Source: a virus
Direction: 5' to 3' (one strand)
Virus record (IMG/VR): IMGVR_UViG_3300033412_000644
Length of the DNA: 51,129 nucleotides
The translations under genes were made by a program, and so were the position numbers. Below, piece after piece: positions 3,214 through 43,776 of this stretch. Numbering within the stretch: the stretch's first letter is position 1; every line of letters begins with the position of its first letter. The notes under the pieces are model-generated. The model was not told the DNA's origin. It made no database searches and saw only the letters and a list, made by a program, of their open reading frames with translations.

Positions 3214-3741
3214 ATGAAGAAGACGTCACAGCAGTGGTGGGCGGAGGTCAAGGCCGATCCTGACAAGCTCAACGGTTGGTTGATCAGGCAGTACCGAGGA
3301 GAAGCGACGGCGAGTCGACGCATCAAGGAATTCGCCGACCGCTACGCTCCGGACACGGTGACCAAGCGAATCCTCGGCATGATCGCCGACCAAGAGAAGC
3401 AACACGCAGAGTGGGTGTTGGAGCTGTTGAAGGCACGAGGCATCGAGCCCAACCTCAACGACGCCGAGAAGCGCTACTGGAAAGAGACGTTGCCCGACAT
3501 CAAGACGTTCGCGACCGGAGCCGCAGTGGGTGCTCACGCCGAGCGGATGCGCCTCGAGCGAATCGAGACCATTGCCAACGACCGCGGCGCGCCCCAAGAC
3601 ATCCGGAAGACCTTCCAGCTGATCCTGAAGGACGAGCTGTTCCACGCCGCTGCGTTTGAGCAGATGGCGGGACCCGAAGCGTTGGAGCAGACGCTCCCGT
3701 CGCACCGTCGAGGTCGCGAAGCGCTCGGCCTCGAGCCGTGA
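3214..3741 (+). CDS. ferritin-like helical protein (two ExxH motifs)
   Basis: EKQH and ELFH motifs about 100 aa apart in a predicted all-helical 175-aa protein. A diiron-carboxylate-like fold is inferred only. Confidence 0.4.
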   Translation: MKKTSQQWWAEVKADPDKLNGWLIRQYRGEATASRRIKEFADRYAPDTVTKRILGMIADQEKQHAEWVLELLKARGIEPNLNDAEKRYWKETLPDIKTFATGAAVGAHAERMRLERIETIANDRGAPQDIRKTFQLILKDELFHAAAFEQMAGPEALEQTLPSHRRGREALGLEP

Positions 3742-4735: not shown

Positions 4736-5107
4736 ATGGCAGAGAGCAAGCTGTTCTACGTCTGGGTGACGATGATCAGCGAACCCAACGCGGAGCGCTT
4801 GGTCGGCAAGCTCGTTCGCAGGAACTGGAAGGTGCAGGCCTTGGGCAATCACCTGGTGCTGCACAGCCAGGAGAGCCCGTGTGCCTTGGTCGCCATCTCA
4901 CTGTCGCGGACTGAGCCGTTGAAGAAAGGCGAGGAGGTCGGTTACACTGCCGTCCTCGAAGAAGTCAAGGACGTGCTGAAGCGCCTCGACGTCAAGTACA
5001 TGAACCTCATCGTCACTGAGTCGACGGGCTGCACTTGGTGTTTGGGCAACATCAACCTCACGCAAGAAAAGAAGCAACTCGAAGAAGAGAAGAAGGGCCT
5101 CAACTGA
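4736..5107 (+). CDS. hypothetical protein
   Basis: Start lies 1 nt after the upstream stop. 123 aa; lysine/glutamate-rich C terminus. Confidence 0.4.
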   Translation: MAESKLFYVWVTMISEPNAERLVGKLVRRNWKVQALGNHLVLHSQESPCALVAISLSRTEPLKKGEEVGYTAVLEEVKDVLKRLDVKYMNLIVTESTGCTWCLGNINLTQEKKQLEEEKKGLN

Positions 5108-5871
5108 TGTTGCACGATTCATTGGGCGACCGCATGAAGGCCTACGAGGTCGCAGCGCGGACGGTGCTGCCTCACCGGCTGCCTGTCATCATTCGCGTCG
5201 ACGGCAAGGCATTTCACACCTACACTGCCAAGTGCGAGCGTCCATTCGACCGACGCTTGAGCGACGTCATGGTGTCGACGGCGAAGCGCCTGTGCGAAGA
5301 GATCCAGGGAGCCCAGTTGGCCTACACTCAGTCGGACGAGATTTCGATCCTGGTGCACGGCTACAAGAAGTTCGACACGCAGTCGTGGTTCGACAACCAA
5401 GTTCAGAAGATGACCAGCATCGCTGCGGCGACGGCATCATCACACTTCAGCCTCAACTCCTGGCTCATCTGGGGCGATTGGAAGGATGACACCTTCTACA
5501 AGCCCGCCGATGTCATGAAGGCGCTGCGACCGGCGACCTTCGACGCTCGCGTCTTCATCATCCCCGAGGCCGACGTCTGCAATTACTTCCTGTGGCGACA
5601 GCAGGACGCGACCCGCAACTCAGTCCAGATGCTAGCTCGCTCGCTGTACTCGCACAAGCAGTGCAACAACAAGAACGGCGTCGAGCTGCAGGAGATGTGC
5701 TTTCAAAAGGGTCACAACTGGAACGACCTGGAGCCTCGGTGGAAACGCGGCGTCTGCATCCTCCGGCCGCTGACCAACGACCGGAACCCATGGCACCTCG
5801 ACGACCAGATCCCGATCTTCTCACAGGATCGTAGCTACATCAATGACCTGCTGAAGCTTGAGGAAGAGTGA
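5107..5871 (+). CDS. Thg1-like protein (tRNA-His guanylyltransferase family)
   Basis: MKAYE...RLPVIIRVDGKAFHTYT...RPFD...SDEISIL matches the Thg1 N-terminal catalytic region (RxDGxxFHxF, PxD). TGATG overlap with the upstream gene. Confidence 0.72.
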   Translation: MLHDSLGDRMKAYEVAARTVLPHRLPVIIRVDGKAFHTYTAKCERPFDRRLSDVMVSTAKRLCEEIQGAQLAYTQSDEISILVHGYKKFDTQSWFDNQVQKMTSIAAATASSHFSLNSWLIWGDWKDDTFYKPADVMKALRPATFDARVFIIPEADVCNYFLWRQQDATRNSVQMLARSLYSHKQCNNKNGVELQEMCFQKGHNWNDLEPRWKRGVCILRPLTNDRNPWHLDDQIPIFSQDRSYINDLLKLEEE

Positions 5872-6138
5872 GTGATTCCAAGTGAGTGGCGAGTCAAACC
5901 GGGAGACTTCGTCCAACGCAATCAGTTCCTTGCCTACGCCTATGACTACGGCGATGTCGAGGGAGTTCCCGATCACTCACCCCTTCTGAACAAGAAAGAA
6001 GCTACCTCACGATTTTGGAGCATTCACGAAACGGCCGTGGTCATCTACGTCAACTCACCTGAGGCGAACTGTTGCCTCGTTTACGTTGCTTCGACGGGTT
6101 ACCTGTGGGTACCCATCGCCGGGTTGACTCATGTATGA
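5872..6138 (+). CDS. hypothetical protein
   Basis: 88-aa ORF with a GTG start directly after the upstream stop. Confidence 0.35.
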   Translation: MIPSEWRVKPGDFVQRNQFLAYAYDYGDVEGVPDHSPLLNKKEATSRFWSIHETAVVIYVNSPEANCCLVYVASTGYLWVPIAGLTHV

Positions 6139-6334
6139 ATGCTTCAACTGCGGCATGTTGCCGGACGCTTGTGTCTGCATTCCGTGGTGCTACAAGCACG
6201 ACAGGCGCGACATTGAACCGCGCTGCCAACCGTGTGTCGTCGAACGTCGCGAGGAAGCCGAGAAGCGTGAACAATTGAAGTCTATCACGCTGCCATGGTA
6301 CGTTGTCCTCTACCGGTACCTGACCGGGGAGTAG
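6131..6334 (+). CDS. small Cys-rich (zinc-binding?) protein
   Basis: CFNCG...CVCIPWC...CQPC pattern in 67 aa. Confidence 0.35.
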   Translation: MYECFNCGMLPDACVCIPWCYKHDRRDIEPRCQPCVVERREEAEKREQLKSITLPWYVVLYRYLTGE

Positions 6335-6342
6335 TACAACAC

Positions 6343-6759
6343 ATGCCGACTTGGATCCTCGTTGCAATCTGCATCCTGTGCTGGGGGACCTGGGCGGTGG
6401 TCGAAAAGCTGGCGGTGAGACACGCCTCGCCGATGATGATGCAGGTCATCGGTGCCTATGCCTACTCGGCCATCGCGCCCGTCATCTTCCTCTACATGAA
6501 AGGAACCGGGCAATCGACCTCGTGGACGGTGCCCGGCATCGCGTGGACGAGCCTTGCGTGCCTGTTGGCGACGGTCGCTTCCTTCTGCTTCCAGTTTGCC
6601 ATCCAGCGGTCACACGTTCACCTCGTCGTGGGCTTCACGTCCACGTATCCAGTCCTCACTTTCCTCCTTTGCTGGCTTTTTCTGGGTGAACCTGTCACTT
6701 GGCAGAAGCTTGTGGGAATCGTCGCGATTGTTGTCGGGACCATCTTGATGGCTTCGTAG
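6343..6759 (+). CDS. small 4-TM membrane protein, EamA/DMT-like
   Basis: Four hydrophobic helices. GGAG Shine-Dalgarno before the ATG at 6343. Confidence 0.45.
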   Translation: MPTWILVAICILCWGTWAVVEKLAVRHASPMMMQVIGAYAYSAIAPVIFLYMKGTGQSTSWTVPGIAWTSLACLLATVASFCFQFAIQRSHVHLVVGFTSTYPVLTFLLCWLFLGEPVTWQKLVGIVAIVVGTILMAS

Positions 6760-6795
6760 CTGTATTTCGTATCCGAACTGTGGTATGGTGAATCC

Positions 6796-7029
6796 ATGCA
6801 CACCATTGAGCTCGATTTTGCCCACGATTGCGACCACACTCGGGATAGTCAGAACTTGGCGCAACGACACGGGTGCTCAGTGCGTCTACTCAAGGAGTTC
6901 GGCCCGGCGGGCGGCAATCCTCTGTACCAATTCACCGGCACCCGCTTGAATCTGGTGTCCATGCTTAGCGAGTTCTGTCAGGACCGCGACACCCTCAACC
7001 ACCAACTGACACGCATCAGGAACACATGA
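6796..7029 (+). CDS. hypothetical protein
   Basis: 77-aa ORF filling the gap. ATGA overlap with rnh. Confidence 0.3.
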   Translation: MHTIELDFAHDCDHTRDSQNLAQRHGCSVRLLKEFGPAGGNPLYQFTGTRLNLVSMLSEFCQDRDTLNHQLTRIRNT

Positions 7030-10940: not shown

Positions 10941-12062
10941 ATGGCCGTAACCCCCGCGCAAATCAAGTGGTCATCGTACACGTCGTACGAGGGGCCGTTC
11001 TTTCTCGGCGTCCGGCGGTTCACCCTCCCGGCGAACCCGGACGATTCTGACAAGCTCCTCGCTGTCATCACCGCGACTGAAGGCGGGCACTACGACGCCA
11101 TCAACATGTACGACCGCTGCATCATCAGCGTAGGCATCATCCAGTGGTGTGAGGCAGGGCAATACTCCGTCTCCGGCATGCTGGGCGCCGTGGCCGATCG
11201 GTGTGGCATCAACGTCGTGCTCGAGGCGTTGAAGACGTCGTTGACCGCCGCCAACGCTACCTTCAAGAAAAACTCGAAGGGACAATGGCGATTCTTCTTC
11301 AATGACTCCGGAGAGGTCAACACCGTCGAGAAGCAGCGCCAGCTGTTCTTGGGCTGCAGCGGCCTCAAGGGTTCGTGGACGCCGAATTCGACGGCCAAGG
11401 CCAAGCAGTGGGCCGCAGACATGTGCAACCTCTGGCTGAACGACGAGGCGTGCAAGGCACAGGTCGAGTACACACGCGCCAGGCTGAAGTGGTTCGCCAC
11501 CGTCGATGCCCAGAAGATTCTGTACGACGCTGAGCCCAACGTAGGTTGGGTAGGCGCTCTGCGCGCGGGCTACATCTCATTTGCCGCAAACCTGCCCGCC
11601 GCTGCGTCGGCGCAGTTGAAGCTCGCCGTCGCCAACCTGAAGTCGCCCAAGTGGAGCCCGAACTGGTGCGTCGGCGTGTTGAAGCAACTGACGTTCGGTC
11701 CCAACATCGCCATCTACCCGGTTCGCTACAACGCGATTCGCCCAGTGCTCGAGGCACTGTGGGGCGTCACCCTGCCCAAGACGGCAAAGGACCTACAGGC
11801 CTGGACGGAACCCGAGGCACCCGCCCCGGAGCCTCCGAAGCCCACGCCAGAACCTACACCTCCGCCCCCACCGGCCCCTGAGCCGTCACCGCCACCTGTG
11901 CCACAGCCTGAACCACCCCCGGCACCCGAACCACCTCCCGTGCCGCCTCCTGACCCCATCGTGCCCGTGCCACCACCCACTCCAGCACCTCCCGGGGGAG
12001 TTTTGGGCTTCATTCTGTGGTTGCTCCAGACCATCTTTTCAAAGTTCACGAGGAAGCAATGA
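10941..12062 (+). CDS. possible lysozyme-like hydrolase with long Pro-rich (PEPxP) linker and hydrophobic C-terminal anchor
   Basis: TEGGHYDAIN resembles the EGGY motif of GH108/GH24-type muramidases (weak). About 60-aa PEP/PxP low-complexity stretch at roughly 11.81-12.00 kb. C-terminal GVLGFILWLLQTIF segment. Confidence 0.35.
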   Translation: MAVTPAQIKWSSYTSYEGPFFLGVRRFTLPANPDDSDKLLAVITATEGGHYDAINMYDRCIISVGIIQWCEAGQYSVSGMLGAVADRCGINVVLEALKTSLTAANATFKKNSKGQWRFFFNDSGEVNTVEKQRQLFLGCSGLKGSWTPNSTAKAKQWAADMCNLWLNDEACKAQVEYTRARLKWFATVDAQKILYDAEPNVGWVGALRAGYISFAANLPAAASAQLKLAVANLKSPKWSPNWCVGVLKQLTFGPNIAIYPVRYNAIRPVLEALWGVTLPKTAKDLQAWTEPEAPAPEPPKPTPEPTPPPPPAPEPSPPPVPQPEPPPAPEPPPVPPPDPIVPVPPPTPAPPGGVLGFILWLLQTIFSKFTRKQ

Positions 12063-12859
12063 GCTACACACCCAAGTTGGGCGGCTGGAAGGCCGACCCG
12101 GCATCGACAGAAGACTACAAGTTCGAGGACCACGTTCAAAAGATCGAGGCCGCGGGCACGCCGCAGCTTGAGGTCAACGGCGTACTCGACCTACGAGCGT
12201 GGTGTTCGCCGATCGAGGACCAGGGTCACCTGGGTTCCTGCGTCGGCAACGGCGTCGTCGGCGCCCTGGAGTTCCTGCAGCTCCGCAACGGTCAGCCTCT
12301 GAACGACCTGTCTCGGTTGTTCGTCTACTACAACTCCCGCTTGATGCACGGCGATCAGGACAAGGATGAGGGCACCTTCATCCGCATCGCCTTCGGCACC
12401 TTGTCGTCGCTGGGAACCTGCACCGAGAAGAAGTGGCCGTACGACACGGCGAAGGTCTTCGTCCGGCCGTCGTGGGGTTCGTACCGCGAGGCGTACCCTC
12501 ACAAGATCGACAGCTACTACAGCATCGGCGGCACCGGCCAGACTCGCATCGACTTCGTCAAGCGAGCGCTGCGAGCCCAACACGTCGTCGTCTTCGGCAT
12601 GACCGTCGACCAGGCGTACATGGACTACCGCGGCGGCATCGTAGCGATGCCCAGTCAGACCCGTATGAACACCGGCGGTCACTGCCAGGTCATCGTCGGT
12701 TTCGACGACAACAAGCAGTGCTGGATCGTTCGCAACTCGTGGGGAACCTGGTGGGGCGACAAGGGCTACGCCTACGTGCCCTATGCGTACCTCGATGCCA
12801 GCGAAGCCAACGACTTCTGGGTGCCTTACTTGCCCGGCACTAGCATGGACAACGGGTGA
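12059..12859 (+). CDS. papain-like cysteine peptidase (C1 family)
   Basis: QGHLGSCVGNG (catalytic Cys), GGHCQVIVGFDD (His) and NSWGTWWGDKGY (Asn/Trp) match the C1 active-site motifs in the right order. ATGA overlap with the upstream gene. Confidence 0.8.
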   Translation: MSYTPKLGGWKADPASTEDYKFEDHVQKIEAAGTPQLEVNGVLDLRAWCSPIEDQGHLGSCVGNGVVGALEFLQLRNGQPLNDLSRLFVYYNSRLMHGDQDKDEGTFIRIAFGTLSSLGTCTEKKWPYDTAKVFVRPSWGSYREAYPHKIDSYYSIGGTGQTRIDFVKRALRAQHVVVFGMTVDQAYMDYRGGIVAMPSQTRMNTGGHCQVIVGFDDNKQCWIVRNSWGTWWGDKGYAYVPYAYLDASEANDFWVPYLPGTSMDNG

Positions 12860-16595: not shown

Positions 16596-16893
16596 AAAGG
16601 CGAAGCCGAAGGCGCCTAGGGCGCCACGTGCCAAGAAGGTCAAGGTCGACCTGTCCAGCTTGCCGGACGCCATCGTCGATGGCAAACTCACCGTGCCCGT
16701 CAAGAGCAAGATCGTCTTTGAGAGGACGATCAACAAGAAGACAGCCGTCCATGAAGGACACATCTGGGGCTTCGATGAAGCGACCGGAGATGTATCGATC
16801 TGGGATGAGACGCGGGGACAGTTCTACGGCTTCAACGTGAGCCAGGCGCACCTGGTCAACGTCAAAGTGTCACCGGGGTCGGGGCTTCCCTAG
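16570..16893 (+). CDS. hypothetical basic protein
   Basis: ATG at 16570, Lys/Arg-rich N terminus. Overlaps the upstream gene by 26 nt. Confidence 0.4.
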   Translation: MSNARRIAEKAKPKAPRAPRAKKVKVDLSSLPDAIVDGKLTVPVKSKIVFERTINKKTAVHEGHIWGFDEATGDVSIWDETRGQFYGFNVSQAHLVNVKVSPGSGLP

Positions 16894-17673
16894 GAAGCTG
16901 CGGATCGACTCCAGGTGAACGTACATCGACGCATTGGGTGCCGGAATCAGCCGTGAGGCGATGCCGCATAGTTCACCGTTGTCATTGAAGCCCGCACCGC
17001 CGGAGTTGCCCTTGTAGACGGGACCCGACACCTGCATCCAGGGGCCGACGACGCCCGACTTGCGAAACGGACGGAAGTCTTCTTCGCGGTAGGCGGCGAC
17101 TGTGGCCGGAAAGTACGTGTAGTACATGCCGACGACGTGGCCGACGATGTGAAGGTTCTCGCCCACCGCCGGTTGAGCGTCCGCGAGACGTGCAACGTGG
17201 TGTTCAGGCATGTCCTTGACGTCCTCAACCACCATGAGCGCCAGGTCATGCGCCTTGTCGTGCTTCAGCACCTTGGCAACGTGGAGCGCCTTGGGCTCCT
17301 TCCAGACGCCGGTCACTTCCTTGTCAACGATGTAGTTGATCTTGAAGCCGTCTTCCAGGTCCTGCACCATCTTCTCGGCTGCATCCTCATCGTCGCTGTC
17401 GCCCATCATCTCGGAGACGACAGCCTCGACGGGAGCTCGAGCACAGTGGTCAGCAGTCAGAATCTTGTCCTTGTCGACCCAGACTCCGGTGCAGAAAGGA
17501 ACGATGTCCTCATCATCGTCCCGGTGAACCAGAGCGACGGTGTCGCTCTTCAGTTCGTCGACCAACGTTGGTCGAGCTTCCGGATGTCTGACTTGGGAAT
17601 GGACACAGCACCCCGCCAGGGCACTGAACAACAACACCAGCACCATCGGCAAGAAGGGCTTCAGATTCTTCAT
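16870..17673 (-). CDS. trypsin-like serine protease (S1), lipoprotein
   Basis: Lipobox signal (LFSALAGC). Catalytic His (TADHCA), Asp, and Ser in GNSGGAGF. Confidence 0.75.
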   Translation of the reverse strand: MKNLKPFLPMVLVLLFSALAGCCVHSQVRHPEARPTLVDELKSDTVALVHRDDDEDIVPFCTGVWVDKDKILTADHCARAPVEAVVSEMMGDSDDEDAAEKMVQDLEDGFKINYIVDKEVTGVWKEPKALHVAKVLKHDKAHDLALMVVEDVKDMPEHHVARLADAQPAVGENLHIVGHVVGMYYTYFPATVAAYREEDFRPFRKSGVVGPWMQVSGPVYKGNSGGAGFNDNGELCGIASRLIPAPNASMYVHLESIRSFLGKPRPR

Positions 17674-17750
17674 AACGACACCTCTGGATCATAGCTATTG
17701 GGTTGCGCTAAGGTTGTCCTGTGGGCGACGTCCAGTGTAGGATCCGCCAC

Positions 17751-18617
17751 ATGCCTGAAGGTCCGGAGCTGGCTCGCAGCCGAGATCATCTGCGAAAATT
17801 GGTGCAAGGCAAACGTCTGCGGACGTTTGGCATCAACCGCAATCACGGCGGCAGCACCGGCGGACGTTACGCCGACAAGGACCCCGAGGGAATGCTGGAG
17901 TTCCTCGGCTCGCTCAAGGCGACCGAGGCCGTCATCGACTCTGTCAACGTCAAAGGCAAGTTCATGTGGTGGACGCTGGCCTTGAAGGACGGCACTGCCT
18001 GGTGGCTGTGGTGCACCTACGGGATGTCAGGGCAGTGGACCACCAACAAGCCTGACAAGCACACCGCGGCGACGGCGTGGGTCGACAACCCCGACGGCAG
18101 TGGACTCCTGGCCGTCAACTTCCGGGACCCACGCCACTTCGGCACTCTCAAGTTCGTCAACAATCAGAAGCAGATGGAGCGCAAGCTGGCGTCGTTGGGC
18201 CCCGACATGCTCAACGACCCGCCTGACACGACCAAGTTCCGCCAGGCGCTGCTCCGCAAGCATGACCGTACGTTGGCTGAGGTGTTGATGGACCAGTCGG
18301 TCGTCAGCGGCGTCGGCAACTACGTCAAAGCCGAGAGCCTGTATCTCGCCGAGCTGTCGCCTCACCGCCTGGTGCGGGACCTCAAGACCGCCGAATTCGA
18401 GCACTTGCGGCAGCAGATCATCAATGTAATGCGCGCCAGCTACAACAATGGCGGAGCAACCATCCGTTCCTACGTGAACGTAGATGGCACCAAAGGCGGT
18501 ATGACAAGCCGCTTTGCGGTGTATGGTAACAAGACTGACCCGATGGGCAACCCCGTAGTGAAGGAAGAGACCGCTGATGGTCGCACCACCCACTGGGTAC
18601 CCACCATTCAGAAGTGA
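17751..18617 (+). CDS. Fpg/Nei family DNA glycosylase (endonuclease VIII-like)
   Basis: Canonical MPEGPEL N terminus (Pro2 nucleophile, Glu3) and an H2TH region. No zinc-finger cysteines at the C terminus. Confidence 0.75.
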   Translation: MPEGPELARSRDHLRKLVQGKRLRTFGINRNHGGSTGGRYADKDPEGMLEFLGSLKATEAVIDSVNVKGKFMWWTLALKDGTAWWLWCTYGMSGQWTTNKPDKHTAATAWVDNPDGSGLLAVNFRDPRHFGTLKFVNNQKQMERKLASLGPDMLNDPPDTTKFRQALLRKHDRTLAEVLMDQSVVSGVGNYVKAESLYLAELSPHRLVRDLKTAEFEHLRQQIINVMRASYNNGGATIRSYVNVDGTKGGMTSRFAVYGNKTDPMGNPVVKEETADGRTTHWVPTIQK

Positions 18618-20985: not shown

Positions 20986-21007
20986 TGTGAGGTACCGCAA
21001 CGACAAC

Positions 21008-21913
21008 ATGCTGCTGCGCATTGCTCAGGCTGATGCCTACGGCATGGCGCGTGAATACGTCAAGACCAAAGACGCACCTGATCACGTTGCCGAGTGCCTC
21101 AAGCTGGAGCGCTACCTGCGCCACCCTACATACCATAAGTTGCCGGCCGGCACCTACACTGACGACACCCAGATGTCGATCGCAGTGAGCGAGGTCCTGA
21201 TCAACAAGCACGGCGACGCCACCCACGAAGAGTGGGCCGAGGCGTTCTTCCAGGCGTTCAAGCGCGACCAACGAGACGGCTACTCCCGCCACTTCCAGGC
21301 GATCCTCGAGGAGGCCAGGGACAGCACCCACATGCGGTCGTTGCTGACGCCGACGTCGACTGCCAACGGCGCTTGCATGCGTGCAGTCCCGTTGGGCGTG
21401 TTGCCCAGCAAGAAGACGCTGCTTGAGGTCGCCGCCAAACAGGCGATGGTGACCCACGCGACCTACGGTGGCATCAATTCAGCCAGCGCCGTCGCCCTGA
21501 TGTCACACTTTGCCCTCTACGACCGTCGAGACTTTGCTTGCCTCTACGACTGGTGTTGCCATTGGCTGCCGGCGTTTGAGCTTTTCCGTGAGCCTTGGGT
21601 GGGCCCGGTGCAGGAGAATTCAAAGGACAAGAGGGGTCTCGGAGTCGGTATGAACACCGCGTGGGCGGTGAGCACCCTGCTCCGCGAAGAGAAGTCTTTG
21701 ATGGCGATCCTACGGCGCACCATCGAGTGGGGAGGCGACACCGATTCTGTCGCCGCGGTCGCCTGGGGAATTGCCTCGGCGCGGTACCAGGACGAGCAGC
21801 TGCCTGAGTTCTTCGAAAGAGATCTCGAAAAAGATAGTGGCAGCGCGTATGGGCCTACGTACCTGAAAGCGCTAGGCAAACAGCTGATGGACGCCTACAA
21901 CCCGCGCAGATAA
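21008..21913 (+). CDS. ADP-ribosylglycohydrolase (ARH/DraG family)
   Basis: C-terminal GGDTDSVAAVAWGIA matches the ARH GGDTDT motif. N-terminal LRIAQADAYGM. Start is 20987 (GTG) or 21008 (ATG). Confidence 0.65.
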   Translation: MLLRIAQADAYGMAREYVKTKDAPDHVAECLKLERYLRHPTYHKLPAGTYTDDTQMSIAVSEVLINKHGDATHEEWAEAFFQAFKRDQRDGYSRHFQAILEEARDSTHMRSLLTPTSTANGACMRAVPLGVLPSKKTLLEVAAKQAMVTHATYGGINSASAVALMSHFALYDRRDFACLYDWCCHWLPAFELFREPWVGPVQENSKDKRGLGVGMNTAWAVSTLLREEKSLMAILRRTIEWGGDTDSVAAVAWGIASARYQDEQLPEFFERDLEKDSGSAYGPTYLKALGKQLMDAYNPRR

Positions 21914-22990: not shown

Positions 22991-23356
22991 ATGAGCTACA
23001 ACATCGACAGCGTCGATACGCCAGTGCTCAACGCTTGGATCCTGAAGAAGGACCTAAAGCGACTGTACAAGAAGCTCGAGGGCGACCTGCCCGAGATGAA
23101 CGTACTGGAAGAACACTTGGATGACGAGCCCGACGAGGACGGTCGCATCAAGTTGCGCAGCTTCGAATGGTGCGGCACTTGGTCGGGCAACTCGTGGAAG
23201 ACGCTAATCAAGCAGGTGGCGCCCAAAGTGATGGGCGAAGTCGAAGCCATCTTCACTTGGGAAGGTGGCGACAGCATCGGCGGTCTCCTCATCAAGGACG
23301 GCAAGGTCGCTGAAGTCGATGTCAAACAACAATTGGTCAGACCAGAAGGTTGGTGA
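22991..23356 (+). CDS. hypothetical protein
   Basis: 121 aa. Confidence 0.4.
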   Translation: MSYNIDSVDTPVLNAWILKKDLKRLYKKLEGDLPEMNVLEEHLDDEPDEDGRIKLRSFEWCGTWSGNSWKTLIKQVAPKVMGEVEAIFTWEGGDSIGGLLIKDGKVAEVDVKQQLVRPEGW

Positions 23357-24171
23357 CAGTGTGCACGCTGATCATCTTGAATGAGCACCATGACGATTGG
23401 CCGTTGATCATTGCGGCCAACCGCGACGAATTCTATGATCGGCCGTCAGCAGGTCCCGACCTCTTTGACACGCTGCCGCTTGCCATCATTGCTCCCAAGG
23501 ATTTGGAGCGAGGTGGCACCTGGATGGGTGCGACGCAGACGGGTTGGTTTGTCGGTCTCACCAACCAAGACGACGGCGACCACCGTGAAGGCATGGAGTC
23601 GCGAGGTCAAGTGGTCGCCGACTGCCTACGACTGTCGGGACACAAGGAGATTGCGCGCTACCTCATTGGCCTCAACCCAGAGAAGTACAACCCATTCAAC
23701 CTCGTCTTCGGCCGACCGGGAGCGATGTTCCTGAGCAAGGTGCACCGCGGTACTGAGGTCGACATGGAGATCATCCCGCAAGGCATCACCGTCATTTCGA
23801 ACGACTGTTCGGATGCCAGGGCGTACCAACGCAAGGTCAACCACGCGCTGGTGCTGGCGGGGTCGGTGGAATTCGATGACCCACTCGATGAGGTCGTGCG
23901 AAAGCTTCACTTGGTGTTGAGTGATCACTCACACTCGTATCCGAACCCGTACCAGTCATTGTGTGTTCACGATACCGAACGTGGCTTTGGTACACGATCT
24001 TCGGCAGTTGTCGCGGTGTCAAAAGAGGGCGACGTACGCTACTATCACTCTGAGGGGCCTGCGTGTCAGGTTGACACCATTCCGCTAGTGCGTGAACTGA
24101 TGACGTTGGATCTCAGCGATTTGGAAGAACCCACTGAGCTGACAGACGACGACATCGAGGTGATCGGATGA
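23350..24171 (+). CDS. NRDE-family protein (TANGO2-like, DUF833)
   Basis: LIIAANRDEFYDRPS and GGTWMG...GLTNQ match the TANGO2 N terminus closely. GTG start overlapping the upstream stop. Confidence 0.78.
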   Translation: MVTVCTLIILNEHHDDWPLIIAANRDEFYDRPSAGPDLFDTLPLAIIAPKDLERGGTWMGATQTGWFVGLTNQDDGDHREGMESRGQVVADCLRLSGHKEIARYLIGLNPEKYNPFNLVFGRPGAMFLSKVHRGTEVDMEIIPQGITVISNDCSDARAYQRKVNHALVLAGSVEFDDPLDEVVRKLHLVLSDHSHSYPNPYQSLCVHDTERGFGTRSSAVVAVSKEGDVRYYHSEGPACQVDTIPLVRELMTLDLSDLEEPTELTDDDIEVIG

Positions 24172-27158: not shown

Positions 27159-28784
27159 ATGAACGGTTTCCAAGACCCCAACGAACCTGCATCGACTCAG
27201 GTCATCTTCTCCAGCGAAGCTCGCAAGCAACTGTACGAAGGCCTGAAGGTCGCCGCCGAAGCTGTCGGCTGCACGCTCGGCCCGAAGGGCAAGACAGTCC
27301 TCATCCAACGCCCCGGCGAGTCGCCCCTCGTCACCAAGGACGGCGTCACTGTCAGCAAGGCAATTCGCCTGAAGAATCAGGTGCAACGCATGGGCGCCGA
27401 GTTGATCCGAGAGGCTGCGGCCCGGACCAATGAGGTGGCAGGTGACGGCACCACGACGGCCACCATTCTGACCCACGCGTTGGTCCAGGAGGGCATCAAG
27501 CTGTTGGAGGCCGGTTACTCCTCACAGCTGCTGTGCCGAGGCATCGACAAGGCGGTCCAGCACCTGCTCGACCAGTTGAAGCAGGACGCCAAGCAGCTGA
27601 CGACCGACGAAGAGGTCGCCCAGGTCGGCACCATCAGCGCCAATGGCGACGCAAACATCGGCGACCTCATCGCTCAGGCGATGAAGAAAGTAGGCCGTGA
27701 CGGCATCATCACCGTCGAAGACGCCAAGGGTATGGCAACGACCCTCGAGGTCGTCGAAGGCATGCAGTTCGACCGAGGCTACCTCAGCCCCTACTTCGTC
27801 ACCAACCCCGAGCGGATGTTGGCGTCGTACGGTGATGCTCTGGTCCTGGTCACCGACAAGAAGCTCAACAGCCTCCGCGACCTGATCCCGGTGTTGGAAC
27901 AGGTGGTGCAAGCACAGCGCCCGCTGCTCATCATTGCCGAGGACGTCGAAGGTGAGGCACTGCAAGGATTGGTGTTGAACCGTGTCAAGTCGAACCTACC
28001 GGTCGTCTGCATCAAGGCGCCGGGCTACGGTTCCCACCGCGATGAACTCCTCCGGGACATCTGCGTCCTGACGGGAGCCACGCTGGTGTCTAGCGCGACC
28101 GGCGCGGACCTGAAGAGCGCCGCTGGGTGCTTGGGCCAGTGCAAGAAGATCGTTGTCGACGCCAAGACGTCGACCTTGGTCGGCACCGGCGCTACCAAAG
28201 AGCAGGTCGAGAAGCACGTCGCTGACCTCCGAGCCCAGTTGGAGGACGTCACCCTCGGCCAGGAAGACATCGTCAAGCTGAAGACCCGCGTCGCCAAATT
28301 GGCGTCAGGCGTCGCCGTCGTCAAGGTCGGCGGTGCGACTGAGGTCGAGATGAACGAACGCAAGTACCGCATCGAGGACGCACTCAACGCGACTCGCGCC
28401 GCGGCCGACGAAGGCATCGTTCCCGGCGGCGGCATGGCTCTATTCAACGCGGTCCAGGGAGTCAAGGGCGAGCTGTGCAAGCCCGGCATGGACCGCGATG
28501 AAGTCGCCGGAGTTGAGGTGGTCGTCGACGCCTGTCTCGCGCCCCTCAAAAAGATCGTCGCCAACGCCGGCCAGAACTCAGGCGTCGTCATCGACAACCT
28601 ACACCGTCAATCCGGTGTCGGCTACAACGCGGCAACCGGCAAGTACGAAGACCTGATCGCAGCGGGCATCATTGACCCGGTCAAGGTGACGCGGTCGGCG
28701 CTGCAGCACGCAGCGTCGGTGGCCACCACCTTCCTGTCGCTCGATGCAGTCGTCTGTGACGAGGAGAAGAAGGACAATGGCTGA
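27159..28784 (+). CDS. groEL: chaperonin GroEL (Hsp60), no GGM tail, no adjacent GroES
   Basis: About 50% colinear identity to E. coli GroEL (AGDGTTTATIL, VEGMQFDRGYLSPYF, PLLIIAEDVEGEAL, AADEGIVPGGG). TAGAAT -10-like hexamer 8 nt upstream. Confidence 0.95.
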   Translation: MNGFQDPNEPASTQVIFSSEARKQLYEGLKVAAEAVGCTLGPKGKTVLIQRPGESPLVTKDGVTVSKAIRLKNQVQRMGAELIREAAARTNEVAGDGTTTATILTHALVQEGIKLLEAGYSSQLLCRGIDKAVQHLLDQLKQDAKQLTTDEEVAQVGTISANGDANIGDLIAQAMKKVGRDGIITVEDAKGMATTLEVVEGMQFDRGYLSPYFVTNPERMLASYGDALVLVTDKKLNSLRDLIPVLEQVVQAQRPLLIIAEDVEGEALQGLVLNRVKSNLPVVCIKAPGYGSHRDELLRDICVLTGATLVSSATGADLKSAAGCLGQCKKIVVDAKTSTLVGTGATKEQVEKHVADLRAQLEDVTLGQEDIVKLKTRVAKLASGVAVVKVGGATEVEMNERKYRIEDALNATRAAADEGIVPGGGMALFNAVQGVKGELCKPGMDRDEVAGVEVVVDACLAPLKKIVANAGQNSGVVIDNLHRQSGVGYNAATGKYEDLIAAGIIDPVKVTRSALQHAASVATTFLSLDAVVCDEEKKDNG

Positions 28785-32976: not shown

Positions 32977-33231
32977 GTGAAGATCACGTTGGGAGAGCTG
33001 CGCCGATTCATTCGAGAGGAAGTCGAGCGTAACAATCGATGGTCAGCAGGTTTCTTTGGTGGTGGCGGACTGGACCGCGCCCAGAGCGACAATAGGCTGC
33101 CACCTCCGGGCTTGGGTTCGGACGACGACGAAGACGACACACAACATGGCAAAGAACAAGAAAAGTCACAACCAGCAGTTCGAGTCGACGATCGAGCGAG
33201 AGGATCGTCTGGAACTTCAGGGCTTCGTTGA
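32977..33231 (+). CDS. small protein carrying the shared N-terminal motif (member 3: VKITLGELRRFIREE; GTG start)
   Basis: Motif shared with 2938, 10099 and 37937. The 3' part overlaps infA in another frame. Confidence 0.4.
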   Translation: MKITLGELRRFIREEVERNNRWSAGFFGGGGLDRAQSDNRLPPPGLGSDDDEDDTQHGKEQEKSQPAVRVDDRARGSSGTSGLR

Positions 33232-33409
33232 TGAGGCGTTGCCCGGCACCCTGTTCAAGGTCAAGTGCGACAACGGTCTGCTCGTCCTGTGCACCTTGGC
33301 GGGCAAGCTGCGCATGAACAGGATTCGCATCCTCCCCGGCGACGCAGTGACGATTGAGGTGTCGCCTTACGACACCAGCAAAGGCAGGATCACGTGGCGC
33401 GGAAGGTGA
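33146..33409 (+). CDS. infA: translation initiation factor IF-1 (bacterial type) with ~17-aa N-terminal extension
   Basis: LQGFVDEALPGTLFKV...GKLRMNRIRILPGDAVTIEVSPYDTSKGRITWR matches E. coli IF-1 MQGTVLETLPNTMFRV...[33 protein letters not shown]. Confidence 0.85.
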   Translation: MAKNKKSHNQQFESTIEREDRLELQGFVDEALPGTLFKVKCDNGLLVLCTLAGKLRMNRIRILPGDAVTIEVSPYDTSKGRITWRGR

Positions 33410-37977: not shown

Positions 37978-38245
37978 GGCCATCAGCAACGGCTGGGCAT
38001 CACCGCCGCAGCCCTTGGGCGCAGCGAAGGGCATGACCAACTCCCGAGAGCAGATCGGCTCGTTGGCTGCAAAGGACGTCGACACTGACGATGAGACGGG
38101 CCTGTCGTCCCACCTAGTCGAACCCGAGGTGGACCCCGAAGATTGCTTCGGTCCGGTGCCGCCTCGTAAGGAAGGCGATCCGTTCTACGCCCAACAGGAC
38201 CCCTTCGTCCGAGACGCTGACGTGTTGCCACAGCCGCGACGCTAG
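37937..38245 (+). CDS. small protein carrying the shared N-terminal motif (member 4: VKLTIRQLRRLIREA; GTG start)
   Basis: Motif is in frame inside ORF 37820..38245, at a GTG preceded by CTCGG. Confidence 0.4.
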   Translation: MKLTIRQLRRLIREAISNGWASPPQPLGAAKGMTNSREQIGSLAAKDVDTDDETGLSSHLVEPEVDPEDCFGPVPPRKEGDPFYAQQDPFVRDADVLPQPRR

Positions 38246-38280
38246 TCAACCCGATTCAAATCGTTTCTTGACCAGCTCGT

Positions 38281-38649
38281 TCAGGTCATCAATCGAGTAC
38301 GGTACGGTTTGGCCAGGACTTCGTAGCCCGAGGAAACTCGGGGCGATTGGTTTCCCGTGGTGATGACCAACGGAATCTTCTGTAGTGCCGGCGCCATAGC
38401 GATGACGTTGAGCACGTCCCACCCACTGAAGTAAGGCATCTCCAGGTCGAGCAGGATCAGGCCGGGATGATTGATGCGCTGTGGGTCTGTCAGGATCTTT
38501 ACGGCTTCAACGCCATTGGACACGCCGATGACCTTGTAACCACCGACTTGTAGCATGAGGACGAGCGCGGCGCGCAGGTCAACGTCATCCTCAATGGCGA
38601 GTACGTAATTGATGTGGCGAAGCGAGGCCGGTACGTTGCGGTGTGGCAT
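38281..38649 (-). CDS. standalone CheY-like response-regulator receiver domain
   Basis: LAIEDD acidic pair, phospho-acceptor Asp in ILLDLEMP, conserved T/S and K (LAKPY). 122 aa. Confidence 0.7.
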   Translation of the reverse strand: MPHRNVPASLRHINYVLAIEDDVDLRAALVLMLQVGGYKVIGVSNGVEAVKILTDPQRINHPGLILLDLEMPYFSGWDVLNVIAMAPALQKIPLVITTGNQSPRVSSGYEVLAKPYRTRLMT

Positions 38650-38741
38650 GACTTCCTCATGAGCTTGGTTGGCTGGCGGACAATTCCACCTGAAAACCTA
38701 ATGCCACGCGCGCTCAAAAACACCCCAAAGAGTGCATGAGG

Positions 38742-39575: not shown

Positions 39576-40058
39576 TCACCGCCGTCCCGTCTGTGCACAA
39601 TCGCACGTGTCAAACGTCTTGGTGCAGATGCCGCAGATGTGATCATCCGGTTCAGCAGGTTCGACGGCGCTCAACTGACGGGTCACGTCCTTGATGAAGT
39701 TGTCGTAGTTCATCCGCAGCATCCCCAAGTCGACCAACGTCAGCTTCTTCAGCCAGCGCGAGCCGATCTGGACGACCTGTTTGGAGCGCTCACCTGGCAT
39801 GAGAGGGTCGAAGGCGACCTGAAAAGTGTAACGCCACTTGCTGTACGACGTTGCCGGCGCGACTTCACGCTTCACCACTCGGTAGACGATGCGACGGACG
39901 AGGACGTTCTCGGCCTTGATCGTGTCCTGTGAGTAGGGACTGTCCTTTTCGTGAGCCTCGCCGTAGTAGGTGACGAGGTCGCCGACGTCGAGGTAGATGG
40001 GATCAGCCCAAGTCGGGGGAGGTGTCGTCTGCATCGCGCGGTGCGCCCACTTATGCAT
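39576..40058 (-). CDS. paralog-array member G (barrel-like N-terminal region plus conserved C-terminal helix)
   Basis: LDVGDLVTYYGE ... RIVYRVVKR ... YTFQVAFDPLMPG ... LTLVDLGMLRMNYDNFIKD. Confidence 0.5.
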   Translation of the reverse strand: MHKWAHRAMQTTPPPTWADPIYLDVGDLVTYYGEAHEKDSPYSQDTIKAENVLVRRIVYRVVKREVAPATSYSKWRYTFQVAFDPLMPGERSKQVVQIGSRWLKKLTLVDLGMLRMNYDNFIKDVTRQLSAVEPAEPDDHICGICTKTFDTCDCAQTGRR

Positions 40059-40497
40059 CGCCCCGGAGGCGCTTGACCTCCTCCTGAATGAAGGTGTCGA
40101 GCTTGAGGCGCATGGTGCCGAGCTCGACGAGCGTCACTCGAGCCATGTCAGTCGCTCCGACGTTGGTGTGGTCGTTGATGCCTTCATCATCTTCGTCGTC
40201 GCCCGGGTGTCGGAGCGGGTCGAGGACTTCTTTGATGGTGTAGTCGTACTGCCGACTCGAGAAGCGATCGGCCTTCGTGCGCTTTTTGATCCGGTAGATG
40301 ACGCGCTCACCACCGTACAGCACCAGCTCACCCACCTCGAAGATGTTCTTGTCGATGGCGGGCGGGGGCGCCGCTTGCGTTGACGAGCCTCGGCCCGGAA
40401 TCGGGCGATTGGACCACATGCCGCGAGCGGCCTTGGGAGTGGGCGGCGCCTTTTTGGGCGATGATGATGTCTTCCTACCTTGCATGCAGCCGCTCAT
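40051..40497 (-). CDS. paralog-array member F
   Basis: FEVGELVLYGGERVIYRIKKR ... YDYTIKEVLDPLRHPG ... VTLVELGTMRLKLDTFIQEEVKRL. Confidence 0.5.
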   Translation of the reverse strand: MSGCMQGRKTSSSPKKAPPTPKAARGMWSNRPIPGRGSSTQAAPPPAIDKNIFEVGELVLYGGERVIYRIKKRTKADRFSSRQYDYTIKEVLDPLRHPGDDEDDEGINDHTNVGATDMARVTLVELGTMRLKLDTFIQEEVKRLRGDA

Positions 40498-40784
40498 TCC
40501 TCACCTGACTTTCTGCGGACCATGTCCTGAATGATGTTATCGAGCTGAGCTCGTTGGGTACACAGGTCGACAACGCTGGGCACATCGACGCTGCGCCAGT
40601 GAACCTTCTTGGGCCGCAGCACCGAGGGACCAGTCACCGCCCAGAACGCTTCGAGGTGGACGTAGTCGTGGCCAGTGATCTTGTAGACTCGCCACAGGAT
40701 GCCCTCTCCAGCGCCATTTTGCATGGCCATGGTAACAACATCACCCACGGCCAGCGGGTTTTTCTCGCGGTCACGTAGGGGCAC
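40494..40784 (-). CDS. paralog-array member E (short)
   Basis: LAVGDVVTMAM ... GILWRVYKITG ... SVVDLCTQRAQLDNIIQDMVRRK. Confidence 0.45.
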   Translation of the reverse strand: MPLRDREKNPLAVGDVVTMAMQNGAGEGILWRVYKITGHDYVHLEAFWAVTGPSVLRPKKVHWRSVDVPSVVDLCTQRAQLDNIIQDMVRRKSGEE

Positions 40785-41199
40785 TGACGTCCTCCCCTGA
40801 CAGTCTCTTGGCCTCCTGCTGGATGAAGAGGTCCAGGCGGTTGCGTGCCAGGCCGAGCTCCATGAGGTCGAGCTTTATCATGTCACCGCGAAGCTCTCCC
40901 CCTCGGACCGTCGTTGTCTTTGACAGCTTGTAGTCCTGTTTGAACAGGCCGAAGATGGGCTTCAGCGTCACCTTGTACTCAGGCGGCTGTGCACCCCAAC
41001 TCTGCATCTCACCTTTCTTGACGAACTGGACGCGAGTGACCCGATAGATGGTGTTGCAGTTGGACGGGTCGGTGTACCTGATGAGGTCGTTCTTGTGAAG
41101 AACACACTTGACATTGATGATGTCCATGGCGCGTTTGACGACCTCTTTCTGGTAGGGATCCAGTTCCTTGAACATCAAAGCGTGCCGCGGTCTTTCCAC
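40771..41199 (-). CDS. paralog-array member D
   Basis: NTIYRVTRVQFV ... YKVTLKPIFGLF ... MIKLDLMELGLARNRLDLFIQQEAKRL. Confidence 0.5.
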   Translation of the reverse strand: MERPRHALMFKELDPYQKEVVKRAMDIINVKCVLHKNDLIRYTDPSNCNTIYRVTRVQFVKKGEMQSWGAQPPEYKVTLKPIFGLFKQDYKLSKTTTVRGGELRGDMIKLDLMELGLARNRLDLFIQQEAKRLSGEDVSAPT

Positions 41200-43013: not shown

Positions 43014-43463
43014 TCAAGCGTCCGTTACGAGTTGTGCTTGGTTGAAGTCTTCGTGATCCATCCACACTAGCTTGCCGTGCAGCATCACCACGTGCCAACG
43101 CTTCGGCGGCTGTGCCGGCGACACCATCAATCCACCTTCGTCGAGCATTGGAATGTTGGAGCCTGGCACCATGGCGGGTCCAGGATCGTCTGGCACGATG
43201 ACGACGAAGGTGTCGCCTCGCTTGATCATCACCTGTTCCTGCGTGTAGTCGAGGAAGTTTTCACGGGCCGATGACGTCACAGTGCTGAACATCCACCACC
43301 CGTCGTTGACCAGGAAGTTCCAGCGCCAGAGCTGTCCGGGCCTAACGACGATAGGTTCGACTGGTTCGTCTGACGTCTCGTTGTACCCGTCCATTGAAGT
43401 CCTGATCGAACATGTTGATTCCATGGTCTTCTTCTCGCTCCACTTCGTACTCGACGCTGCCAT
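43014..43463 (-). CDS. hypothetical protein
   Basis: 149 aa. Start uncertain. Confidence 0.35.
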   Translation of the reverse strand: MAASSTKWSEKKTMESTCSIRTSMDGYNETSDEPVEPIVVRPGQLWRWNFLVNDGWWMFSTVTSSARENFLDYTQEQVMIKRGDTFVVIVPDDPGPAMVPGSNIPMLDEGGLMVSPAQPPKRWHVVMLHGKLVWMDHEDFNQAQLVTDA

Positions 43464-43776
43464 CGATGTTGGCGGTGCACTTGATGTCGACGATCGACGG
43501 ATCGTCTACGTCGATGCCGTGGTATGTCTTCAGGTCCTCAGCAACCTCGGCGGACCAGCGAGCGTTGAGCTTCCGGGACTTGGCGAGGATGGGTTGTGAC
43601 TGGACCTCGATGGTCTCCATCCACGGAGGGTTCGCCCACAATACCACGGCTTCTTCGGCCAACGCGACCAACGTGCCGCGTGCGGCTTGGTCTTCAACGT
43701 GGGTGACGAAAGCACCGGGCGCAAGTCGACTGCCGTCTAGGCGCTGGATGAAACTGGGCGCATACTTGCGGAGCAC
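43342..43776 (-). CDS. hypothetical protein
   Basis: 144 aa. Confidence 0.35.
   Translation of the reverse strand: MLRKYAPSFIQRLDGSRLAPGAFVTHVEDQAARGTLVALAEEAVVLWANPPWMETIEVQSQPILAKSRKLNARWSAEVAEDLKTYHGIDVDDPSIVDIKCTANIDGSVEYEVEREEDHGINMFDQDFNGRVQRDVRRTSRTYRR

Follow-up and report, generated by a model that had tools for sequence, protein, structure and literature searches.

A stand-alone CheY-like receiver gene on a phage-like metagenomic contig and its probable recent frameshift ahead of helix 5

The receiver gene and its immediate neighborhood

We have analyzed IMG/VR virus record IMGVR_UViG_3300033412_000644 over its full length of 51,129 bp (referred to below as the window). The window is about 60% GC and contains roughly 110 short ORFs, most of which gave no family match when scanned. 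Near its three-quarter point lies a 122-aa ORF with an ATG start that is a real receiver gene (Table 1). The Pfam profile PF00072 (Response_reg) scores 43.8 bits against the ORF, the curated cut-off being 30.2, and a profile search of the PDB returns only receivers, with RR468 (E = 2e-17), PhoB and Spo0F on top. The 92-nt intergenic spacer ahead of the ORF (38650-38741) includes a Shine-Dalgarno-like GAGGAAG, which is separated from the ATG by 3 nt. By consensus scan, there is no sigma-70-like promoter or intrinsic terminator around the gene.

Alignment with E. coli CheY places E20/D21 opposite D12/D13, D68 opposite D57, T98 opposite T87 and K114-P115 opposite K109-P110. The acidic pair, phospho-acceptor Asp, Thr and Lys called in the original prediction are thus all present; loss of the phospho-acceptor, which that prediction had named as grounds for its own rejection, has not occurred, as D68 is retained. 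It was likewise correct that the 122 residues make up a single receiver domain with no second or output domain. The description of the domain as complete, however, does not hold. The Pfam match of the native ORF covers only profile positions 1-81 of 111, and the secondary-structure order is beta1-alpha1-beta2-alpha2-beta3-alpha3-beta4-loop-beta5, followed by a frameshifted tail that reads YRTRLMT and stops. Rather than a complete (beta-alpha)5 fold, the window copy has one in which helix 4 is missing and helix 5 has been frameshifted off.

The receiver is the last gene of a minus-strand block that runs from ~51.1 kb down to 38.28 kb (about 12.8 kb). This agrees with the predicted position at the end of a long minus-strand run, and the gene is convergent with a plus-strand neighbor whose end is at 38245. 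The placement is the same in our ORF map and in the gene calls made by JGI for sister contigs. The next gene upstream on the same strand is an ORFan, and just upstream there are also three tandem ORFans that are paralogous to each other (29% identity over 139 aa and 55% over 31 aa) and have no Pfam or PHROG match.

Table 1. Positions of the features discussed in the text, numbered from the first nucleotide of the window
Feature	Position	Strand	Basis or remark
Isocitrate lyase, full length	776-2128	plus	Pfam ICL 312.7 bits
Rubrerythrin/MiaE-like protein	3214-3741	plus	
Thg1-like tRNA-His guanylyltransferase	5035-5871	plus	phrog_4717, 286 bits
Papain-family protease	12017-12859	plus	
Trypsin-like protease	16870-17673	minus	apparent N-terminal signal or lipobox-like sequence
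Fpg/Nei glycosylase	17721-18617	plus	
ADP-ribosylglycohydrolase	20987-21913	plus	
TANGO2	23350-24171	plus	
GroEL	27159-28784	plus	phrog_5725; order conserved in L101/L104
IF-1, bacterial-type	33056-33409	plus	order conserved in L101/L104
Convergent neighbor of the receiver, 102 aa	37937-38245	plus	JGI gene call on sister contig; no assigned function
Helix-5 remnant, out of frame: SIDDLNELVKKRFESG + TGA stop	38246-38296	minus	read from sequence
Receiver ORF, 122 aa, ATG start	38281-38649	minus	read from sequence; PF00072 match
Period-5 tandem repeat ACCGTACCGTAC, CCGTA duplicated	38297-38308	minus	frame break right after K114-P115-Y116
K114 codon	38308-38310	minus	receiver ORF, catalytic position
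T98 codon	38356-38358	minus	receiver ORF, catalytic position
D68 codon	38446-38448	minus	receiver ORF, phospho-acceptor
D21 codon	38587-38589	minus	receiver ORF, acidic pair
E20 codon	38590-38592	minus	receiver ORF, acidic pair
GAGGAAG, Shine-Dalgarno-like	38653-38659	minus	3 nt 5' of receiver ATG; read from sequence
ORFan upstream of the receiver, 88 aa	38742-39008	minus	gene call; same strand block; no Pfam/PHROG match
Tandem ORFan paralogue	39576-40058	minus	no Pfam or PHROG match
Tandem ORFan paralogue	40051-40497	minus	no Pfam or PHROG match
Tandem ORFan paralogue	40771-41199	minus	no Pfam or PHROG match
Gp23 fragment ORF	43342-43776	minus	Pfam 37.2 bits, positions 111-172/376; phrog_138
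SPFH/Band-7 protein, 656 aa	46392-48362	minus	adjoins the major-vault-protein-like ORF
Major-vault-protein-like ORF, 898 aa	48396-51092	minus	MVP_shoulder 104.9 bits + Vault repeats

The window as a likely fragment of a large phage

The receiver had been predicted to be phage-encoded, and several lines of indirect evidence suggest that the window is likely a fragment of a large or huge phage. Full-length matches to PHROG families with unassigned functions are found for five families (phrog_7371, 21295, 10079, 4717 and 5725). Two IMG/VR viral contigs, L101 (160 kb) and L104 (32 kb), encode GroEL proteins that are 69% and 65% identical to that of the window, and on both the gene order of the window is retained over the stretch that starts at GroEL, includes IF-1 and reaches a homologue of the receiver's convergent gene. 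Within the phage collection, the major-vault-protein-like (MVP-like) protein encoded at the far end of the minus-strand block has 41-44% identity to its only matches, which are in the uncultured huge phages LR756500 (462 kb) and LR756501/3 (735 kb); GroEL is also shared with these 462-735 kb phages. A 2023 bioRxiv preprint (10.1101/2023.11.10.566534) reports MVPs in phages.

On the other side of the balance, the 51-kb window contains no complete capsid, portal, terminase or tail gene, and phage origin is for this reason likely and not proven. The T4 Gp23 major-capsid fold recognized in one small ORF counts in favor of a phage, but it extends over ~60 residues only and the neighboring ORFs have no capsid similarity, so that this ORF is an isolated fragment and not part of a split capsid gene. 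A megablast search of INPHARED with the 36-41 kb region gave no match.

Could the receiver instead be bacterial, an orphan response regulator of the usual kind carried by a chromosome or a plasmid island? The lack of complete structural genes and the many cellular-type genes of the window (isocitrate lyase, GroEL, IF-1, Fpg and the proteases) would be in keeping with such an origin. It is contradicted by the ~110 short ORFs that mostly lack a family match, by the full-length PHROG matches and the Gp23 fragment, by the synteny with the 160-kb and 32-kb IMG/VR contigs and by the MVP-like protein, whose matches in the phage collection are confined to the 462-735 kb phages. In addition, a pattern-limited scan of representative genomes of 185,579 species has no member of the receiver's family among the matches listed. 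We consider a non-viral origin very unlikely. A chromosomal context with a cognate kinase, which the original prediction had set as a further test of itself, was not found in the window: tblastn with a histidine kinase from a relative's contig (L013, see below) detects no histidine kinase, and the HMM of the receiver family detects no second receiver.

The receiver block itself is likely a lineage-specific accessory region. The convergent 102-aa gene is 41-46% identical to ORFs in L101 and L104, neither of which has an adjoining receiver; in L101, the homologue is followed by an unrelated 829-aa gene. Nothing in the compared parts of L101 and L104 matches two other parts of the window, ~30-32 kb and 33.6-37.8 kb, which may be lineage-specific insertions as well.

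The remaining recognizable genes make up an unusual cellular-type set for a phage fragment: TANGO2, ADP-ribosylglycohydrolase, Fpg/Nei glycosylase, two proteases and a rubrerythrin/MiaE-like protein. The full-length isocitrate lyase may be an auxiliary metabolic gene of the glyoxylate shunt. A Thg1-like tRNA-His guanylyltransferase is encoded even though a search of the 51 kb with ARAGORN detects no tRNA gene. We also recognize a FEN-type exonuclease, a UDPGP-like enzyme, a VWA protein, an AAA ATPase and a metallophosphatase.

A receiver family without helix 4

An exhaustive HMMER scan of 1.84 billion representatives returned five matches at E <= 1e-30, the query itself being one of them, and most of the top matches reach a high score only because they carry several receiver domains per protein. 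The best single-domain relatives, at 34-47% identity, are P0036 (the closest, 47%), P0073, P0053, P0076, P0080, P0060 and P0130/P0154. All come from metagenomes and none has an NCBI genome accession. Among the matches listed, the metagenome and genome scans otherwise contain generic receivers at <=37% full-length identity. Searches of viral sequences have been similarly sparse: tblastn against phage records yields weak similarity of 25-30% identity, mostly to mis-binned bacterial sequence, while a scan of viral contigs found no match with the single receiver protein and distant receivers only (26-40% identity) with the family alignment. Our literature search found no description of phage-encoded response regulators or histidine kinases of this type. 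Judged by sequence comparison, the family is a small, undescribed and apparently phage-associated Rec-only subfamily of a known domain kind.

In all of the relatives, the stretch from the conserved Thr to the conserved Lys is 6-8 residues shorter than in CheY or RR468, and Pro-rich. In the window receiver, T98 and K114 are 16 residues apart, as compared to 22 in CheY and RR468. This shortened segment points to a receiver family that lacks helix 4, and the AlphaFold2 (AF2) model agrees: a loop at 99-109 joins beta4 and beta5, with no helix in between. At the end of beta4 the window receiver reads V95-I96-T97-T98-G99-N100, the family consensus being LVITTGE. The trait is not phage-specific, since single-domain helix-4-less receivers are also found in cells, for example in Myxococcota; such distant relatives (34-37% identity) come from Myxococcota MAGs, Nannocystis and soil metagenomes. 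These distant cellular receivers keep helix 5.

A 5-nt duplication displaces helix 5

The frame of the window receiver breaks exactly at one of the two period-5 repeats of >=12 nt that the 51-kb window contains. On the minus strand, the native codons are GCC AAA CCG TAC CGT ACT CGA TTG ATG ACC TGA, or A-K-P-Y-R-T-R-L-M-T-stop. Reading in the +2 frame from the second TAC on gives TAC TCG ATT GAT GAC CTG AAC GAG CTG GTC AAG AAA CGA TTT GAA TCG GGT TGA, or Y-SIDDLNELVKKRFESG-stop, and the stop of this helix-5 remnant adjoins the stop of the convergent plus-strand gene. When one CCGTA is deleted, the ORF encodes a 132-aa protein with the C-terminus KPYSIDDLNELVKKRFESG.

Several comparisons indicate that this 5-nt repair recovers the family's own C-terminus. 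First, the repair stretches the PF00072 match from 81 to 108 of the 111 profile positions (1-108). Second, the seven closest homologues enter helix 5 with KPYSLEQIEER, KPYSFEQIVER, KPYTETQVMAE, KPLSIRDVIEI, KPVNLIELYDL, KPASINVIIEK and KAYTLEQMMAI; the pattern among relatives is KP[YLVA][STN]xxx[ILVM] followed by the helix. Third, the K-P-aromatic-x4-L spacing seen in CheY and RR468 is obtained by the 5-nt repair alone. Finally, we scored alternative tails with a family HMM built from the seven homologues only, with the window protein left out. The native receiver scores 125.9 bits against 134.7 for the 5-nt-deleted form, and two possible -1 shift products score 128.2-128.7 bits. The repaired receiver exceeds all of 200 shuffled tails (mean 126.2 +/- 1.5, maximum 133.7).

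In the AF2 model of the repaired 132-aa form (pLDDT 78.0, pTM 0.70), the loop at 99-109 is followed by beta5 and by alpha5 at 118-131. Foldseek matches this model to receivers only, among them those of RR468, PhoB, PmrA, Spo0F and CheY with TM of about 0.6-0.7; RR468, PhoB and Spo0F rank first, at about 0.65-0.7. In the model of the native 122-aa form the core is unchanged and a one-turn stub at 118-121 follows beta5; its pLDDT is 78.6 as compared to 78.0 for the repaired form, a figure that is no measure of stability.

Taken together, the Pfam extension, the intact helix 5 of the homologues, the HMM scores and the spacing argue that a slipped-strand duplication of 5 nt has displaced helix 5. 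Its codons are intact and merely out of frame, which points to a recent lesion and not to a remodelled C-terminus. The ancestral receiver had ~132 aa and ended in KPY-SIDDLNELVKKRFESG; slipped-strand duplication of CCGTA then put helix 5 out of frame, leaving the present 122-aa product.

The truncated allele recurs in other samples

A more trivial explanation is that the gene is intact and the frameshift was made by sequencing or assembly, short tandem repeats being liable to mis-assembly. However, the identical 122-aa product is encoded on contigs from three further samples processed by two pipelines: JGI 3300045391 (15 kb), Logan SRR9009773 (9.7 kb) and JGI 3300031716 (2.2 kb). The last of these contigs, L001, aligns with the window over 2.16 kb at 98.8% identity, with one mismatch and a 24-nt indel elsewhere, and its duplicated site is identical to that of the window over 27 nt. 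A 5-nt duplication would also be atypical as an Illumina error. The recurrence of the same allele in three further samples excludes an assembly error as a reasonable account, and we regard an artefact of any kind as extremely unlikely.

According to the JGI gene calls, the lengths of the upstream genes vary slightly among the sister contigs, which indicates that the allele is common to more than one strain variant. An intact orthologue at above about 50% identity was not found by a word-indexed search of a 5.8-billion-cluster database, which returned the receiver's own cluster only. At least four assemblies carry the truncated allele in identical form, with neighbor genes that vary slightly, and this would fit a form that is tolerated or even useful. 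Divergence among the copies is low.

On balance, our preferred reading is that the window receiver is probably a recently frameshifted copy of a phage-borne Rec-only receiver belonging to a helix-4-less metagenomic subfamily. JGI annotates the gene as a 'CheY-like chemotaxis protein'. This label is generic and the annotated gene is the frameshifted allele, so it does not denote an intact effector.

Possible functions of the truncated product

Helix 5 normally lies over half of one sheet face and is kept in every relative, and the truncated product is for this reason probably unstable or weakened. To judge from its sequence, the 122-aa protein is most likely unstable, or else a hypomorph in the process of being lost; at best, it would be a weakened phosphate acceptor.

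The original prediction offered a more active role, in which the stand-alone 122-aa receiver drains or decoys phosphoryl groups of host kinases during infection. On this view, losing helix 5 would be tolerated or even adaptive. In its favor, all of the catalytic residues are intact, the gene has a good ribosome binding site, the allele recurs across several samples and strain variants, truncation leaves the AF2 core as it was, and the Rec fold reportedly tolerates missing helices (PMC9981736). What weakens the proposal is that helix 5 is kept by all seven relatives as well as by the distant cellular helix-4-less receivers, that the loss of helices 4 and 5 takes one helix away from either side of the sheet, and that intact helix-5 codons lying out of frame point to a recent lesion. 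We consider a working sink encoded by this allele possible and on the whole doubtful. For the family as distinct from the window copy, a role as phosphate sink or decoy may apply, and the missing helix 4 fits it: by analogy, absence of this helix fits a phosphotransfer or sink receiver rather than an allosteric CheY-like switch. The motility or chemotaxis effect suggested at the same time finds no support in the context of the gene, as no che or flagellar gene turned up in the scanned proteins of the window.

Short hops of tRNA during translation are known in E. coli and have low efficiency. Conceivably, peptidyl-tRNA-Tyr could hop +5 nt from UAC to UAC across CCGUACCGUAC and restore the ancestral 132 aa, perhaps at a regulated level. 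The duplication does provide matching take-off and landing codons (CCG UAC CG UAC UCG), the hop would yield KPYSIDDL, and the helix-5 frame is open and family-like. Such codon pairs, though, arise by construction in any tandem duplication; moreover, the take-off codon is not followed by a stop or rare codon, there is no slippery heptamer, and the RNA downstream folds no better than shuffled sequence (z = 0.39). Recoding of the window allele is in our view highly improbable. A stimulated frameshift is rejected as well, as the RNA 3' of the duplication is not unusually structured by the same measure.

Kinase neighbors of the related receivers

The contigs that carry the relatives have nothing in common with the window but the receiver. 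P0060 is encoded on a contig of 112 kb that also carries genes for Ku and HNH proteins, and P0154 is located within long runs of tiny ORFans. P0073 is encoded on the 25-kb contig L013, and two genes upstream of it is the gene for a histidine kinase (L013 positions 5723-6862, plus strand). This is a soluble protein of 379 aa with predicted RsbRD_N-like, HisKA and HATPase_c domains. Near the L013 receiver there is also a 521-aa protein matching phage primase/polymerase-type PHROGs. The contigs of P0036 derive from two samples in which the window allele also occurs. Their arrangement, on a contig of ~2.9 kb, is that of L013: a gene for a HATPase_c protein is followed by one of 184 aa, by a small one and by the receiver.

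A third contig, L016, is syntenic with L013, and here the kinase is cleanly missing between the 164-aa and 184-aa genes (L016:6115-6169). In the receiver of L016, P0053, Asn stands where the phospho-acceptor Asp would be (ILTNLNMP). Co-loss of kinase and phosphorylation site, a single observation, is the pattern expected of a cognate pair. The kinase neighbors of P0073 and P0036, together with the kinase-less contig and its Asn receiver, suggest a partnership with a phage kinase, kinase adjacency being seen in one of about five lineages only. Gene order and sequence thus hint that the family may pair with the phage's own kinase at least as much as it decoys the kinases of the host.

Intact members of the family would act as small phospho-acceptors, as shuttles, sinks or partner-binding switches that use the active-site face, for a histidine kinase that is phage-carried in at least one lineage and possibly host-borne in others. 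In such receivers, the signaling surface would be the phosphorylation site together with the alpha1/beta-loop face, and not alpha4-beta5-alpha5. A more far-reaching scenario is that some very large soil phages carry a minimal two-component pathway, comprising a globin-like RsbRD_N kinase and a helix-4-less Rec, that reads host physiology, the window allele being functional either via the +5 hop or as a three-helix five-strand sink; we regard this as a long shot. Of the two leads, the kinase-receiver pair on related phage-like contigs is more interesting than the window gene. Should the pairing hold, it would make it possible to ask whether large phages have a phosphorelay of their own.

Comparison with known receiver systems

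The best match of solved structure is RR468 of Thermotoga maritima (TM0468; PDB 3dge and 4ja2), with a Foldseek TM of about 0.66-0.68 in addition to the profile match given above. Like the family described here, RR468 is Rec-only, has the same catalytic residues and starts helix 5 with KPFSxxQ. It partners a HisKA-type kinase, HK853, just as the L013 relative is found beside a HisKA kinase. The differences are nonetheless considerable: RR468 has full helices 4 and 5, whereas the family carries a 6-residue helix-4 deletion and the window copy has lost helix 5 as well; identity to the window receiver is only 27-30%; and RR468 is encoded in a bacterial operon, not on a phage-like contig. CheY shares the fold class, the five catalytic positions and the single-domain architecture of the window receiver at 26% identity. 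Its FliM/CheZ-binding face does not exist in the window receiver, since helix 4 is missing.

Loss of helix 4 is shared with the 'FATGUY' receivers, which include Sma0114, SdrG, MrrA, CpdR and the Rec domain of CckA (PMC9981736). In these mostly single-domain proteins helix 4 is missing or disordered and a linker connects beta4 and beta5. They are read as phosphotransfer hubs, shuttles and sinks that leave the alpha4-beta5-alpha5 switch unused (PMC9981736). The F-x-S/T-G-Y motif of that class is not present in the window receiver or its family, in which positions T-2 and T+2 are not occupied by Phe and Tyr, respectively; I-T-T-G-E/N takes its place. FATGUY receivers are encoded on alphaproteobacterial chromosomes, whereas the window family is found on phage-like contigs, in one lineage with a HisKA-type kinase as a neighbor. 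Having lost helix 4 without having the motif, the family resembles the FATGUY receivers in its probable mode of working and is not a member of the class.

Very large phages are already known to encode a receiver-derived domain, the cREC of jumbo phages, which reportedly never occurs in histidine-kinase systems and is linked to NAD+/ADP-ribose enzymes (Iyer et al. 2021, PMC7824862). The window domain differs in being a classical PF00072 receiver whose relatives adjoin a kinase with HisKA and HATPase_c domains. The immediate neighbors of the window receiver are ORFans, and the ADP-ribosylglycohydrolase is 17 kb away. cREC is a different, kinase-independent lineage.

Three PHROG families match the receiver as well: phrog_731 (44.3 bits), phrog_5982 (35.7) and phrog_20458 (25.6). 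Only the receiver portion of each is matched, the profiles being 227-1030 positions long, multi-domain and with no assigned function, in contrast to the single-domain window protein. These matches do mean that receiver domains have already been catalogued in phage or prophage genomes. Receiver domains are among the commonest bacterial signaling modules and another one is ordinary; single-domain receivers and helix-4-less receivers are both already known. Less ordinary is a coherent helix-4-less Rec-only subfamily that is so far found only on phage-like metagenomic contigs.
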